NCBI GenBank assembly: GCA_902580215.1
Contig: CACHJT010000002.1
Span: 1,789-65,788 of the forward strand
DNA from: an uncultured Candidatus Actinomarina sp.
Lineage (GTDB): Bacteria; Actinomycetota; Acidimicrobiia; Actinomarinales; Actinomarinaceae
Length of the DNA stretch: 64,000 nt
Reading direction: 5' to 3'
Shown: positions 31,893 to 52,951 of the stretch, piece after piece
Position numbering within the stretch: the first letter of the stretch is position 1
How the letters are laid out: each line of letters begins with the position of its first letter
The notes under the pieces: model-generated
The model's database searches: none
Told to the model about the DNA's origin: nothing
Seen by the model: the letters and a program-made list of their open reading frames with translations, nothing else
Made by a program: the position numbers and the translations under genes

Positions 31893-31981
31893 GGAGGGAT
31901 CGCATAGTCTGGCCTAGTGCGCACGCTTGGAAAGCGTGTAAGGGTTTATCCCCTTCGAGGGTTCGAATCCCTCTCCCTCCG
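31893..31981 (+). tRNA. tRNA-Ser(GGA)
   Basis: CACGC-TT-GGA-AA-GCGTG anticodon arm, long variable arm, GTTCGAATCC. Confidence 0.95.
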
Positions 31982-32001
31982 CAAAAAGAAAGAAACCATC
32001 T

Positions 32002-32087
32002 GGAGGGATGGCCGAGCGGACGAAGGCGATAGTCTTGAAAACTATTGTATGTATTCCATACCGTGGGTTCGAATCCCACTCCCTCCG
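32002..32087 (+). tRNA. tRNA-Ser(TGA)
   Basis: ATAGT-CT-TGA-AA-ACTAT anticodon arm, long variable arm. Confidence 0.95.
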
Positions 32088-32094
32088 CTGACTT

Positions 32095-32181
32095 GGAGAG
32101 GTGACTGAGTGGCCTAAAGTGCTCGCCTGCTAAGCGAGTGGGGAAGAAATTCCCTCGAGGGTTCGAATCCCTCCCTCTCCG
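32095..32181 (+). tRNA. tRNA-Ser(GCT)
   Basis: CTCGC-CT-GCT-AA-GCGAG anticodon arm, long variable arm. Confidence 0.95.
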
Positions 32182-32185
32182 CAAT

Positions 32186-48522: not shown

Positions 48523-50421
48523 TTATTTTGACAAGTTTTTTTGGGATAAAAAGGCTTCATCATTCCATTTTCTACCTAAAAAGTCCTTAACCATGTTCTC
48601 AGCAGGTACAGTTCCTCCAGGCTTTAGAATTTTATTTTTATAGTCAACACCAACAGAATTAGACAATACCCCTTCATTTTCAAATCTACTAAATAAGTCA
48701 TCACCGATTATTTCAGCCCACAAATAACCATAATAAGCCGCATCATACCCACCAAGTAAATGTCCAAAAGCTGCTAGATGATTGATATCTTTCGGATATG
48801 TTATTGTTGTAACTTTTTGAGCTGCATGCTCTATTTCTAAAAGGCTGTCTTTAAAGTTTTCACCATGTAAATGCTGATCTGCAAGACCAAATGAAACCTG
48901 CCTGAGTGTAAGTAAACTAACTCCAATATTTTTTGATTTATTTAATTTTTCACATATTTCTTCAGACAATGATTCACCAGATTCAATATGCGTTGAAATT
49001 CTTTTCATACATTCTACTTTCCATACCCAATGCTCCATAATTTGACTCGGTGCTTCGACGAAGTCCCATTCACAGTTTGCACCAACAAATCTCGTATATT
49101 TTGATTTTCCAATTCCGTTGTGTAGAACATGGCCAAATTCGTGAAAAAGAGTTTCAACTTCATCGAAAGTCATTAACCCATCTCCTGTGTTCGGGTTTGG
49201 AAAATTTGCAACCATTGAGCATATTGGCAACTCTTGTCTGCTAGATCCACCAGAAGATATATCGAATACTGCAGCATGTGTAAATTTTCCTTCTCTTGGA
49301 TAAAGGTCTAAATAAAAATATGCTAACTGTTGACCATTTTTTTCCCATAAAGACCAAAGCTCAACATCTTCATGCCATGCAGTTTCATTCGATTCAGGTT
49401 TTATATGCAAATCAAATACTTCTTCACAAACTTTAAACATTTCAGTTTTCACATCATGTATGTAAAAGAATTTTTTTAATTCACTATTTTCAATGCTGCT
49501 TACTTTACTTCTTTCTTTTGAAATAAAATAGCGTATATCCCAAGGAGTTATATCAGAAATTTCGATGTTATCTATAGCAAGTTCAATTTTTTCTACTTCA
49601 GCTGCTTTTTGTAATTTTGGAATCAAGCTCTCATACATTGAAGCTACATTTTTTGGTGACTTTGCCATCCTGTTCTGCAATCTATATTCAGCCCAAGTTT
49701 TAAATCCAAACAACAAAGCTTTTTCATTTCTTAGTTGAACAGCTTTTTCAAGAATTGGACTATTTTCTTTTACAGCTCGATTGTTAAAAGCTTTCCAAAC
49801 AATTTCTCTAGTATTTCTCACACTGCAGTTTTCCATAACAGCATTAATGTCTGGATATGCCATTGTTATAACAAAACTATCATTATTTTTCTTCAAGTTT
49901 TTAAGTTCGTTTTGACTCAGACCTTTTAGTTCTTCTTCCAAAAACATGACTTCAGTTTTGTCCTTTGCAATATTTTCTGAAAAAGAAATGCTGAGATCTA
50001 TAAGCTTTTTTTCGATTTCTGTGAGCCTATCCTTTTTTTCATCTGATAGACCATGTCCTGCATCTTTGAAGTCAATTTCTAAATCTCTATAAAATGTTTT
50101 CGATTCTACATCTAAATTTTTAGTTTCTATTTCTTTAAACTTTTCGTATAGATCTTGATCTTTAAATATTTCAAGTTCAAGATTTTGTATTTTTGAATCT
50201 GCTTCATTTCCAAAATCTCTTATTTTTTCATCTGGATGTACATCTCCCATAAACGCAATGCGTCCAGAAAGATCATAAATTGCACTCTCCAGCTCATTAA
50301 AATTCGATAAATCGATATTTTCAGAAGATTTAATATTACTAACGAAATCTTTACATTCTTCGATTGTATTTTTTAAGTCTTCTTCTAATTTTCCTAAAGA
50401 TATATCTGAATAGTTATACAC
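48523..50421 (-). CDS. M3 family metallopeptidase (thimet oligopeptidase-like)
   Basis: LDLYPR.GK, FHEFGH, DFVEAPSQ.ME, YY.YLWA; AGGAG SD with GTG start. Confidence 0.92.
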   Translation of the reverse strand: MYNYSDISLGKLEEDLKNTIEECKDFVSNIKSSENIDLSNFNELESAIYDLSGRIAFMGDVHPDEKIRDFGNEADSKIQNLELEIFKDQDLYEKFKEIETKNLDVESKTFYRDLEIDFKDAGHGLSDEKKDRLTEIEKKLIDLSISFSENIAKDKTEVMFLEEELKGLSQNELKNLKKNNDSFVITMAYPDINAVMENCSVRNTREIVWKAFNNRAVKENSPILEKAVQLRNEKALLFGFKTWAEYRLQNRMAKSPKNVASMYESLIPKLQKAAEVEKIELAIDNIEISDITPWDIRYFISKERSKVSSIENSELKKFFYIHDVKTEMFKVCEEVFDLHIKPESNETAWHEDVELWSLWEKNGQQLAYFYLDLYPREGKFTHAAVFDISSGGSSRQELPICSMVANFPNPNTGDGLMTFDEVETLFHEFGHVLHNGIGKSKYTRFVGANCEWDFVEAPSQIMEHWVWKVECMKRISTHIESGESLSEEICEKLNKSKNIGVSLLTLRQVSFGLADQHLHGENFKDSLLEIEHAAQKVTTITYPKDINHLAAFGHLLGGYDAAYYGYLWAEIIGDDLFSRFENEGVLSNSVGVDYKNKILKPGGTVPAENMVKDFLGRKWNDEAFLSQKNLSK

Positions 50422-50458
50422 TCAACTCCTTTAACTTTTTATATGATAGTATTTAGTT

Positions 50459-50695
50459 ATGGAAATCAAACTTGAATTTTGTGTAGTTTGAAACTACACA
50501 CCTCGTGCAGTTGGTACGATTGAAGATATCTTAGAAGTTTACGGTAACAAAGTTACAAACATTCAACTAATTCCAAGTGGTGGTGGAGTATTTGAATTTC
50601 ATTTAAATGAAAAATTATTATTTTCAAAAAAAGAACTTGGAAGACACTCAGAAGATGGAGAAATTCTTAAATTAATTGAAGAAGATCTTGGTTGA
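50459..50695 (+). CDS. SelW/SelT/SelH (Rdx) family selenoprotein, 78 aa, CxxU
   Basis: MEIKLEFCVV-U-NYTPRA...LIPSGGGVFEF...LFSKKELGR; in-frame TGA at 50489-50491 occupies the redox motif and the frame continues with Rdx signature motifs. Confidence 0.88.
50503..50519 (+). promoter_or_regulatory. Candidate bacterial SECIS element
   Basis: UCGUGC-AGUUG-GUACGA stem-loop beginning after an 11-nt spacer following the UGA, with GU near the start of the loop. Confidence 0.55.
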
Positions 50696-51426
50696 ATCTA
50701 CCGTTTGACTTAACGCTATTTGAAGTAATTTTTATTGCAATATTACTTTTTATTGGCTCTGCCGTTCAAGGCGTTTTGGGTTTTGGCTTTGCTGTTATTG
50801 CTTCACCAATAATTGTTCAAATTGAGCCTAGTCTGGTGCCTCAACTGCTCGCGTTACTTGGTTTGCCACTTGCTTTAAGAGTTTTTTACCGAGAAAAAGA
50901 CGAAGTTGATTTATCTAAAGTTAAGCCACTTATTCTAGGTCGATTAATAGGAGGACCAATTGGACTCTTATTATTATTAAACTTATCCGAAAAATATTTA
51001 TCAATCTCTGTAGGGCTTATTGTTTTTATAGCAGGTGCAGGCTCTTTTTTTGGTTGGGAAATTAACAGAAATACTTTGAATTCCTTTTTTGCAGGTACTT
51101 TTTCAGGTATTTTTGGGATGATTGCAGCCATTGGTGGTCCTCCTGTAGCTTTGCTTTATAGGAATACTAAATCTCAGGAATTTAGGCCATCTCTCAATAG
51201 TGTATTTAGCATAGGCATTTTGATTACATTGTCTCTTTTAATTTTTAGTGACAATCTTTATGTTGACCACCTACTTTTATTTATGTTATTTCTTCCAGTT
51301 GTTTTGGTAGGCATTAGAGTTTCTAGCTCGCTTTTCTCAAAAGTCTCTGACAGTTTTATTGCCCAGTCGGTAACTTATTTTTCCATTATTTCTGGGCTTT
51401 ATGTTATTTTGAGAAACATAAATTAG
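50692..51426 (+). CDS. TauE/SafE family sulfite/organosulfur exporter
   Basis: G..GFG.A....P, G..IG.P.G, GGPP motifs; TTG start overlaps the selenoprotein stop. Confidence 0.88.
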   Translation: MNLPFDLTLFEVIFIAILLFIGSAVQGVLGFGFAVIASPIIVQIEPSLVPQLLALLGLPLALRVFYREKDEVDLSKVKPLILGRLIGGPIGLLLLLNLSEKYLSISVGLIVFIAGAGSFFGWEINRNTLNSFFAGTFSGIFGMIAAIGGPPVALLYRNTKSQEFRPSLNSVFSIGILITLSLLIFSDNLYVDHLLLFMLFLPVVLVGIRVSSSLFSKVSDSFIAQSVTYFSIISGLYVILRNIN

Positions 51427-51463
51427 TTTATTTCAACTAGGGGGATTATTAACATATAAGCAT

Positions 51464-52951
51464 ATGTTTATGAACGCCATTATTGCCGGCTTGCTCTACT
51501 TCTTAAGTTTCCCTCCTTATGATTTTTGGTATTTAATATTTCCTGCACTTTATTTTTTTTATTATTCATTGCTTTCAAGTAAAAAATCTTTTCTGTCAGG
51601 GTTTATCTTTGGGTGCGTTGCTTACGGCGTGATTCTATTAGGAATTCAATCAATAGGACTTGAAGCCTGGATACCGTTGACATTTTTAATGGGGTTGATG
51701 TATGGAGTATTCTCAAAATTATTTTCTTATCTAAATACAAAATCTGGAAATAATTTCTATGTATTGTTGGCAGCGTTAGCAGTCTTTGATTTGATCAGAG
51801 CATATTTTCCTTTTGGAGGATTTCCTTGGGGTTTTCCATCAACAGTTTTACTGACAGGCCCTATAGATAGCCCATTATTTTTTGAAGTACCTTTGACATT
51901 CAGAAACTTTGGACCAACGGGATCTTCGCTTTTACTACAATCTCTTCCTTTAGTAATTGCACTTGGTGTTTTTTCAAAAAGCAAACCAAAAAATTACTTA
52001 AAGGATTACAGCATATTTTTATTAATAATTTTCACAATATTCATTTCAAATTATGTTGTTAATGACTATCAATACACTCAGTTAGAAACATCAGAACTTA
52101 ACATTACAATCGTTCAAGGAAACAGCCCTTGTCCTGGTGCAAAAAACAGATGCATCAATGAAAGACAAAAAATTTATGATAGCCATTTAGCTCAAACCCA
52201 ATCTCTCGAAGGGAATTTTGATTTAGTAGTTTGGCCTGAGAGCTCAACAGGATTTAACAATGATCCGGGAGTACACAGTAGAGTTCAAAATGACGTTTCT
52301 ACTCAAGCTTTGAGATTAGATTCATATTTTTTAATTGGGGGAGACAGACCTGTACAAAAAGAATATTTCGAAAACTACGGAATCTTTATTAACAGAGAGG
52401 GAGAGATTGTGGATCAATATCTAAAACAGCATCCAGTACCATTTGGAGAATATATCCCTTTTAGAAAATATTTAGATTGGATTCCCCCACTAGCACTGGT
52501 TCCTCGTGACATGATTAGGGGAGATGGTCAAAAAATATTTATGGTTAATGATACAAAAATATCAACTGTTATTTCATTTGAAGGTTCTTTTCAAAGATAC
52601 ATTAGGAACAGTGTCTTGGACGGTGCAGAGTTGGTTGTAATCCTTACTAACCAAGCAAGCTATGGAGAAAGCGGGATGTCGGACCAATTTATATTAATGT
52701 CTAGGGCAAATGCAATTTCAAACGATAGACCAATTGTACATGCAGCAATTACAGGTAAATCAGCGTTCATAGATCACAATGGAAAAGTTGTTTCTAAAAC
52801 TGAATTATTTGAAACAACAACATTAAATGAAAAACTTGAGGTAAAACAAACAAAAACTCTATACAGCAAATACGGAAATTATTTAAATTATATTTTTATA
52901 ATATTTGGAGTTCTTATCTTTGCTAGAAGATTTATTCGTCCAGTTGATTAA
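51464..52951 (+). CDS. lnt: Apolipoprotein N-acyltransferase (catalytic Cys replaced by Ser)
   Basis: PFGGFPW, VQGN, WPES, K.H.VPFGEYIP, ISFE. Confidence 0.88.
   Translation: MFMNAIIAGLLYFLSFPPYDFWYLIFPALYFFYYSLLSSKKSFLSGFIFGCVAYGVILLGIQSIGLEAWIPLTFLMGLMYGVFSKLFSYLNTKSGNNFYVLLAALAVFDLIRAYFPFGGFPWGFPSTVLLTGPIDSPLFFEVPLTFRNFGPTGSSLLLQSLPLVIALGVFSKSKPKNYLKDYSIFLLIIFTIFISNYVVNDYQYTQLETSELNITIVQGNSPCPGAKNRCINERQKIYDSHLAQTQSLEGNFDLVVWPESSTGFNNDPGVHSRVQNDVSTQALRLDSYFLIGGDRPVQKEYFENYGIFINREGEIVDQYLKQHPVPFGEYIPFRKYLDWIPPLALVPRDMIRGDGQKIFMVNDTKISTVISFEGSFQRYIRNSVLDGAELVVILTNQASYGESGMSDQFILMSRANAISNDRPIVHAAITGKSAFIDHNGKVVSKTELFETTTLNEKLEVKQTKTLYSKYGNYLNYIFIIFGVLIFARRFIRPVD

Follow-up and report, generated by a model that had tools for sequence, protein, structure and literature searches.

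A reading frame of 78 codons that is interrupted by a TGA at codon 11, and whose terminal TGA lies on top of the start of a gene for a membrane protein, raises two questions: is the internal TGA decoded as selenocysteine (Sec), and are the two genes tied to each other beyond the nucleotides that they share? The frame lies at 50459-50695 of the window, i.e., the whole 64,000-nt stretch of contig CACHJT010000002.1 from an uncultured Candidatus Actinomarina sp. (assembly GCA_902580215.1) that was analyzed here. An earlier note, made from the sequence of this DNA alone, had proposed that the frame is an unannotated SelW/Rdx selenoprotein gene translationally coupled to a gene for a TauE/SafE transporter (hereafter, the SelW and TauE genes), and that the pair may serve as a selenium-responsive switch. 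Altogether, our computational analyses make us confident that this is a genuine Actinomarina SelW-like selenoprotein gene, in which UGA-11 is predicted to be read as Sec and to which TauE is most likely translationally coupled. The features that carry this conclusion are the following:

50459..50695, plus strand: SelW-like (Rdx family) selenoprotein gene of 78 codons plus TGA stop, with Pfam and NCBIfam matches and orthologues that keep the TGA
50480..50491, plus strand: C-V-V-U redox motif, codons 8-11, with the predicted Sec codon TGA at 50489-50491; C8 and position 11 are invariant
50503..50519, plus strand: candidate bacterial selenocysteine insertion sequence (SECIS) with a 6-bp stem and the 5-nt loop AGUUG, 11 nt after the UGA
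50692..50695, plus strand: TTGA, the TTG start of TauE over the TGA stop of SelW, in all Actinomarina junctions sequenced
50692..51426, plus strand: TauE/SafE-family membrane protein of 244 aa without cysteine (Pfam PF01925, E = 9.7e-22)

The SelW frame starts with an ATG at 50459, meets the in-frame TGA at codon 11 (50489-50491), continues for 67 more sense codons and ends with a second TGA at 50693-50695. With the internal TGA translated as U, the product reads MEIKLEFCVVUNYTPRAV...GGVFEF...LFSKKELGRH...LG. Under translation table 11, no plus-strand open reading frame (ORF) of at least 40 aa is listed between 50459 and 50691, which explains why the gene is missing from the ORF track. Based on domain searches, the product belongs to the Rdx family as the earlier note had claimed: Pfam Rdx (PF10262) matches with E = 6.8e-16 and 58.7 bits (cut-off 22.6), with residues 3-74 aligned to positions 2-73 of a profile of 74, and NCBIfam TIGR02174 (CXXU_selWTH) matches with 44.2 bits (cut-off 34.2). 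Moreover, the profile of the orthologues matches the solved bacterial Rdx proteins 2fa8 (E = 5.7e-15), 3dex, 2ojl, 2p0g ("selenoprotein W-related"), 2oka, and 2obk as well as human C17orf37 (2ljk). In these comparisons, U11 aligns with the second Cys of the CxxC motif of the solved Rdx proteins (2fa8 and 3dex), and C8 and position 11 are invariant in alignments of 23 and 27 sequences.

The SelW gene is present in 57 of the 64 Actinomarinales species genomes (host included), in 56 of the 62 other Actinomarina species genomes, and in all 12 Actinomarinales genomes with a completeness of at least 90%. All 58 match rows from the 57 genomes have exactly one TGA, always at the same codon, and codons 11 and 79 are both TGA in each of the 34 unique Actinomarina nucleotide sequences. 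Beyond the order, five class-level relatives keep the TGA, and one (L045) has a Cys form. Among 600 candidate stretches from the named genome collection, 395 encode a relative, and in the best 80 of these, which were kept for the codon comparison, the aligned codon is always TGA (Chloroflexota, Gemmatimonadota, Actinomycetota, and others). Downstream from the UGA, the median ratio of nonsynonymous to synonymous substitution rates (dN/dS) is 0.17 over codons 12-78, arguing for purifying selection on this part of the frame. Finally, RNA-library contigs of two studies extend across the UGA and show no difference there. The earlier note had pointed to a misread TGT, TGC, or TGG, or to decay after the TGA, as what would undo its proposal; we found TGA in every unique sequence and a frame under selection. 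Because the UGA is conserved, the frame after it is selected, and the RNA-library contigs are unchanged at this position, sequencing error, decay, and codon reassignment are excluded for practical purposes.

The host has the means to read this codon as Sec. Its genome (996 kb in 23 contigs, 33% GC, 87% complete) contains selA (381.5 bits) and a tRNA-Sec with anticodon TCA (75.4 bits), both above cut-off, selD (372.9 bits), which itself contains one in-frame TGA, and, directly after selA, a full-length selB-like gene (positions 2-566 of 581). Thus, all four components are present, selB alone falling below its curated score, and the suggestion that this streamlined actinobacterium uses Sec holds. 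According to a recent preprint, the same Sec machinery is present in all 84 complete Actinomarina genomes, which have approximately five predicted selenoproteins each (bioRxiv 10.64898/2026.04.03.716425). As a side observation, three consecutive tRNA-Ser genes followed by a tRNA-Arg gene are located at 31893-32182 of the window; with their long arms, they reach 34-44 bits against the tRNA-Sec model, which explains a borderline tRNA-Sec hit (50.2 bits) in a genome of the sister genus (G079). This hit is one of three clustered long-arm tRNA hits and is probably a tRNA-Ser.

The UGA is followed by a 17-nt hairpin, UCGUGC-AGUUG-GUACGA, that lies exactly where the earlier note had placed it, i.e., at 50503-50519 and 11 nt after the UGA. 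The 26 aligned sequences share this 6-bp stem and 5-nt loop in the corresponding position. The hairpin cells of this alignment are paired in 98.1% of cases compared with 91.0% in shuffles, of which none of 500 reach the observed value, and in 11-48% when the pairing partner is slid. Two pairs have changed on both sides, the outer one alternating among U-A, C-G, and G-C and the fourth between U-A and C-G. In the outer pair, the first base of codon 21 (Ile, Val, or Leu) is matched with the synonymous third base of a Pro codon. Zero synonymous variation was seen in codons 16-20 (CGT GCA GTT AGT ACG) of the 34 unique sequences, while 3-5 synonyms occur in other four- to six-fold degenerate codons of SelW. 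In addition, a T>C change at 50515, which converts a G.U pair of the hairpin into G-C, was found in contigs of three RNA libraries. We regard the covariation as evidence that supports, rather than proves, a role of the putative SECIS.

A minimal fdhF hairpin of 17 nt can function at an 11-nt spacing, the spacing to which the earlier note had compared this hairpin; the literature searched did not yield a source for that value. Like the fdhF SECIS of Escherichia coli, the SelW hairpin is located immediately 3' of the UGA, is in frame, and has G and U in its apical loop; unlike the fdhF SECIS, it spans only 17 nt, lacks the bulged U, and is much weaker (-6.6 kcal/mol for a 60-nt fold). A small apical loop containing G is a feature of bacterial SECIS elements (Zhang et al., PMC1088965). 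In E. coli, the ribosome occludes approximately 11 nt, such that the upper stem-loop alone is exposed with the UGA in the A site (PMC4513850).

The gene that follows encodes a multi-span hydrophobic protein with a full-length match to the TauE/SafE (TSUP) family of anion transporters (PF01925, 78.2 bits with a cut-off of 32.6; residues 16-237 on positions 2-236 of a profile of 237); none of the NCBIfam models matched it. Homologues outside the genus are at most 36% identical, and the host genome encodes three TauE paralogues, all without TGA. No Cys is found among the invariant columns of the TauE alignment. As the earlier note had stated, the SelW stop overlaps the TTG start of this gene. No start codon precedes the TTG at 50692 in the TauE frame, and the one that follows is 28 codons further, inside the Pfam-matched region, leaving the TTG as the only plausible start. 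All 42 sequenced junctions, 22 from the genus loci and 20 from Actinomarina-like loci of the named collection, have TTGA, and the preceding codons for L77 and S78 are invariant in the 34 unique sequences. The 70 nt before the TTG contain no Shine-Dalgarno (SD)-like or GGAG-type motif, and contigs from RNA libraries of three studies bridge the junction. In one congener (G064:C5:9841-10567), the TauE orthologue is split into two overlapping matches and contains a TAA, with an intact SelW upstream, reflecting either a broken TauE gene or an assembly error.

Two flanking genes and a motif upstream of SelW are needed for placing the pair in its context:

48523..50421, minus strand: divergent M3 peptidase gene (Pfam Peptidase_M3, E = 3.4e-114), with 37 nt between its start and the SelW ATG
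51464..52951, plus strand: apolipoprotein N-acyltransferase (Lnt)-like gene (Pfam LNT_N and CN_hydrolase), 37 nt after TauE
50444..50452, plus strand: extended -10-like box, with TG at -15/-14 and TAGTAT at -12 to -7 relative to the A of the SelW ATG

Within Actinomarina, SelW and TauE behave as a cassette. SelW and the TauE orthologue occur in the same 56 of 62 congeners, and their coordinates abut in all 57 genomes (58 loci). By comparison, the M3 peptidase gene is the upstream neighbor of SelW in 13 of 22 genus loci and is changed in nine, and lnt is downstream from TauE in all 22. In a genome of the sister genus (G079, 71% complete), the M3 peptidase gene and lnt are divergently oriented with 19 nt between their starts, and neither SelW nor TauE lies between them (L150, G079:C45:1-2340); selA and selD were not found in this 71%-complete genome at the thresholds used. 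The co-absence of SelW and TauE in G010, G021, G053, and G072 is uninformative, because lnt is missing as well and these genomes are only 77-87% complete.

Outside Actinomarina, we found no such pair. None of the six class-level SelW loci has a TauE gene next to SelW. Among 65 co-directional ORFs located downstream from SelW-like genes, 50 were given Pfam searches, comprising all 45 non-Actinomarina and five of the 20 Actinomarina-like ORFs; all five of the latter, and none of the former (0/45), are TauE. Similarly, TauE is absent among 54 hydrophobic ORFs within 2.5 kb of SelW in other phyla (0/54), and no Rdx gene was found in the stretches fetched around the 12 nearest class-level TauE homologues (0/12; 32-36% identity), while the positive control detected six of six. 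A hidden Markov model (HMM) built from the Actinomarina TauE orthologues, which had reported no TauE near SelW in other phyla, was discarded because it also missed the host's own paralogues, and Pfam was used instead. Conserved linkage to TauE, which the earlier note had proposed as a check, applies to every Actinomarina locus but to no relative examined outside the genus. Two loci assigned to other lineages, a Methanobacteriota archaeon (L064) and a Marinoscillum sp. (L065), have an Actinomarina-type SelW-TTGA-TauE arrangement with 58-64% SelW identity; these are probably Actinomarina contigs binned into the wrong metagenome-assembled genomes. SelW-like genes of other lineages have other close neighbors: in genomes of the Anaerolineae type, a Trp/Tyr-tRNA synthetase gene begins at most 5 nt after the SelW-like gene (four loci: L085, L086, L105, and L115); in Gemmatimonadota, a phosphofructokinase gene follows (five loci: L106, L107, L110, L124, and L125), in some cases with a stop/start overlap; and a helicase gene is the neighbor in three loci elsewhere. 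Heading a tight gene pair may be a wider habit of SelW-like genes.

The -10-like box suggests where transcription of the cassette could begin. A TAnnnT sequence at -12 to -7, read by eye, is present in most of the 22 genus loci and is one base off in two (L027 and L029). Genome-wide, TANNNT starts at -12 in 59 of the 356 host genes with an upstream gap of at least 40 nt compared with approximately 15 at other offsets, and an SD-like motif precedes only 96 of the 356. Initiation on leaderless transcripts and initiation without an SD sequence seem to be major modes in Actinomarina, and from the position of the box we infer that the SelW transcript may be leaderless and start at the ATG. A scan of 50300-51600 detected no terminators. 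Contigs of four RNA libraries cover the SelW gene; RNA-library bins without coverage carry no meaning.

Based on these findings, we suggest the following model. SelW would be a 78-residue, cytoplasmic, thioredoxin-like redox protein with the active site C8-x-x-U11 and probably represents the first cistron of a leaderless transcript. SelB together with Sec-tRNA(Sec) would be recruited by the hairpin (6 bp, loop AGUUR), the start of which, 11 nt downstream, would be close to the edge of the ribosome with the UGA in the A site, and would read UGA-11 as Sec. The second UGA (codon 79), which lacks such a hairpin, would terminate translation. Because the two genes are fused in TTGA, an SD sequence is lacking, and TTG is a weak start, the ribosomes that translate TauE are most likely those that have just completed SelW. 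A side effect would be that less TauE is made when selenium is too scarce for decoding of the UGA. We consider the coupling likely and such a passive selenium dependence of TauE plausible; an evolved switch or a role in Se/S-oxyanion transport we regard as unproven and improbable.

Several observations weigh against parts of this model. Concerning the gene and its decoding, the selB-like gene scores 184.8 bits, which is below the curated cut-off of 242.25 (a divergence of selB is likewise described in the Actinomarina preprint, bioRxiv 10.64898/2026.04.03.716425), and the SelW protein scores 79.9 bits against the equivalog model NF041051 (SelTWH_Campy) with a cut-off of 88 and is, thus, related to but not a member of this equivalog. 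The folding energy of the hairpin is not significant: the minimum free energy for 60 nt is -6.6 kcal/mol, whereas shuffled sequences average -9.9 (z = +1.40) and equal or exceed its stability in 191 of 200 cases. The covariation represents few independent events among related genomes, and part of the hairpin conservation is protein constraint because the hairpin is located in coding sequence. An Rfam scan of 50380-50760 with E-values up to 10 returned only chance-level matches to eukaryotic families. Concerning the transcript, a scan of 50300-51600 for sigma-70 sites with two hexamers gave three promoter-like sites compared with 5.4 expected and none upstream of the ATG; one RNA-library contig (X17) starts 51 nt upstream of the ATG; and contigs by their nature cannot prove transcription, strand, 5' end, or a single transcript. 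Concerning the coupling, RNAalifold on 31 unique SelW/TauE junctions gave no consensus structure that hides the TauE start, which leaves room for independent TauE initiation, and overlaps of 4 nt are found in 110 of the 678 co-directional ORF pairs of the host genome, 14 of them with TTG. Overlaps of 1 nt are found in 56 of these pairs, and 46% of the co-directional pairs overlap when the longest ORF is called.

How do other explanations fare? That the UGA is not a Sec codon, and instead reflects a sequencing error, a decayed gene, a stop after a 10-residue peptide, or a reassigned codon, would agree with the weak folding of the hairpin. The occurrence of TGA in 34 of 34 unique Actinomarina sequences, in the 80 best other relatives, and in RNA-library contigs of two studies, the low dN/dS after the TGA, and the presence of tRNA-Sec, selA, selB, and selD all argue against it, and we give this explanation next to no credence. 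Translation of TGA as Trp or Gly was considered and rejected, since TGA also ends the SelW gene and its neighbors under table 11. A more serious alternative is plain gene packing, in which TauE initiates on its own, the overlap and adjacency are products of streamlining and common history, and the genes are tied neither functionally nor by regulation. The abundance of 4-nt and 1-nt overlaps in the host fits this explanation, as does the scarcity of SD-like motifs: with only 96 of 356 genes having one, SD-independent initiation must be common. Also, lnt is as conserved downstream as TauE itself, and four congeners lack it along with the pair. However, the pair is never separated in 58 loci from 57 genomes, although the upstream neighbor changes in nine of 22 loci and gene order in Actinomarina turns over rapidly between species according to the preprint (bioRxiv 10.64898/2026.04.03.716425). 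Moreover, what the sister genus lacks between the conserved flanks is exactly SelW and TauE, and codons 77-78 are frozen. On balance, we consider packing alone possible but unlikely.

If the genes are tied to each other, what is the tie? In an evolved selenium switch, TauE would move a Se/S oxyanion and its synthesis would be gated by decoding of UGA-11, such that the transporter tracks selenium status. The geometry of the locus fits (the TTGA overlap, the TTG start, no SD sequence, and a probably leaderless first cistron), the synonymous sites just before TTGA are frozen, and SelW and TauE are gained or lost together, both being absent in the sister genus in which selA and selD were not found at the thresholds used. 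UGA recoding in E. coli is 30-40% efficient and requires sufficient selenium (PMC4513850), and in Treponema primitia, selenium controls expression downstream from the Sec codon of fdhF(Sec) (Matson et al. 2013, PMC3892789). In this precedent, selenium acts on transcription elongation within one gene, whereas the proposal for SelW-TauE involves reinitiation on a second, overlapping cistron. Against a switch, no link between TauE and selenium was found in the literature searched and nothing in our analyses points to the TauE substrate; the type of overlap is ordinary in this genome; no conserved structure occludes the junction; the pairing is confined to one genus; and the co-absence amounts to one evolutionary event and one 71%-complete genome. 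By our own reasoning, an importer that needs selenium for its own synthesis would also be a poor design in seawater with nanomolar selenium. Accordingly, we regard an evolved switch as improbable. In a physical partnership, SelW would dock on the cytoplasmic face of TauE and chemically handle the anion, e.g., by reduction, and coupling would ensure matched amounts. The stop-start overlap, the strict co-occurrence, and the cassette-like presence or absence are what would be expected; however, SelW-like genes elsewhere have unrelated neighbors (Trp/Tyr-tRNA synthetase, phosphofructokinase, and helicase genes), and thiol-selenol exchange between the two proteins is excluded because TauE has no cysteine at all. 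We consider a partnership very unlikely. A broader idea joins these elements, namely that SelW and TauE form a mobile selenium module of two genes that is found in Actinomarina alone, in which TauE carries a Se/S oxyanion, SelW processes the anion in the cytoplasm, and the TTGA junction on a leaderless mRNA reads out the Sec-tRNA capacity; we see it as a long shot. We therefore favor a Sec-containing SelW protein with a likely coupled TauE, for which any selenium dependence would be a passive consequence of the coupling.

At the protein level, we see no difference between this SelW and the known prokaryotic SelW-like selenoproteins (Rdx; PF10262, formerly PF05169; TIGR02174), which are the commonest marine selenoprotein family (Zhang, Fomenko, and Gladyshev 2005, PMC1088965; Zhang and Gladyshev 2008, PMC2398784): the gene is equal in size, has an N-terminal CxxU and a small candidate SECIS with an apical-loop G, and is marine. 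TauE, in turn, differs from the other TauE/SafE members examined in being paired with an Rdx gene. A search for literature on Actinomarina and selenoproteins turned up only the preprint "Actinomarina, resolved" (bioRxiv 10.64898/2026.04.03.716425). It describes an "uncharacterized" 78-aa selenoprotein with one U, the most common one predicted there, in 59 genomes and as a close variant in 35 more, of 113; the family had no UniRef90 or KofamScan match, and Rfam models found no SECIS. SelW, Rdx, and TauE are each mentioned zero times in the accessible part of the preprint. Based on the same organism, the same length, and the single U, we infer that this family corresponds to the SelW-like gene described here. 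The 59/35 split fits the G19/S19 variants that we observed, because the preprint groups its proteins by their first 20 residues. To the extent of the literature searched, the assignment to Actinomarina, the covarying hairpin, and the fixed TTGA junction to TauE are new; none of them was found there. K07090 is a TauE-type entry. The "K07090" group of 49 genomes in the preprint may, thus, represent the SelW ORF mapped onto the TauE gene that it overlaps.

SelW is not the only candidate selenoprotein of the host. When the genome was scanned crudely for frames that are split by a TGA and have a hairpin downstream from it, eight candidates were listed, of which four (SelW, selD, an AhpD-like protein, and a ResA/TlpA-like thioredoxin-fold protein) look real. 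The AhpD-like, peroxidase-related gene is located outside the window (C3:90947-91507, minus strand; L193:304-861, minus strand) and has an in-frame TGA in C-E-Y-U; it matches TIGR01926 with 135.7 bits (cut-off 81.8) and Pfam CMD, has the hairpin UCUCC-GGUC-GGAGA 20 nt after the UGA, and is probably another selenoprotein gene split by gene callers. The ResA/TlpA-like gene, also outside the window (C9:33622-34104, minus strand; L194:304-783, minus strand), encodes a signal-peptide-like N-terminus and the motif W-A-D-Y-U-G-V-C. A 6-bp hairpin, GGCGGG-AGUUA-CCUGUC, follows its UGA at a distance of 10 nt; the AGUUA loop of this hairpin is also that of most Actinomarina SelW genes, which hints at a genus-specific recognition loop for SelB. 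The TGA of selD (...GSG-U-ACKL) is at C2:81736, 15.9 kb beyond the end of the window, and is followed after 9 nt by the hairpin CUCUCC-CAA-GGAGAG, which is different from that of SelW. The most numerous selenoprotein families of the Global Ocean Sampling (GOS) data are SelW-like (427), SelD (357), Trx-like 1 (321), and AhpD-like 1 (299). Since the four kinds found in this host match these four families, the comparison suggests that a large part of the metagenomic signal came from picoplankton of this type.

Among the selenoproteins of ocean metagenomes, the SelW-like proteins are the most common, and Actinomarina is among the most abundant bacteria of the surface ocean. Our findings give a family name to the most widespread "uncharacterized" Actinomarina selenoprotein and, where the Rfam models failed, a usable pattern for the Actinomarina SECIS, i.e., a 6-bp stem with the loop AGUUR 10-11 nt after the UGA. 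If SelW-TauE did prove to be a mobile selenium module, bacterial SelW-like proteins would, for the first time, have a physiological role and a partner assigned to them, and the module would act as a selenium sensor without a riboswitch. The invariant TTGA junction is an inexpensive, testable lead, and as yet no more than a lead, to a partner or a role for a SelW-like protein and to a possible selenium-dependent polarity.

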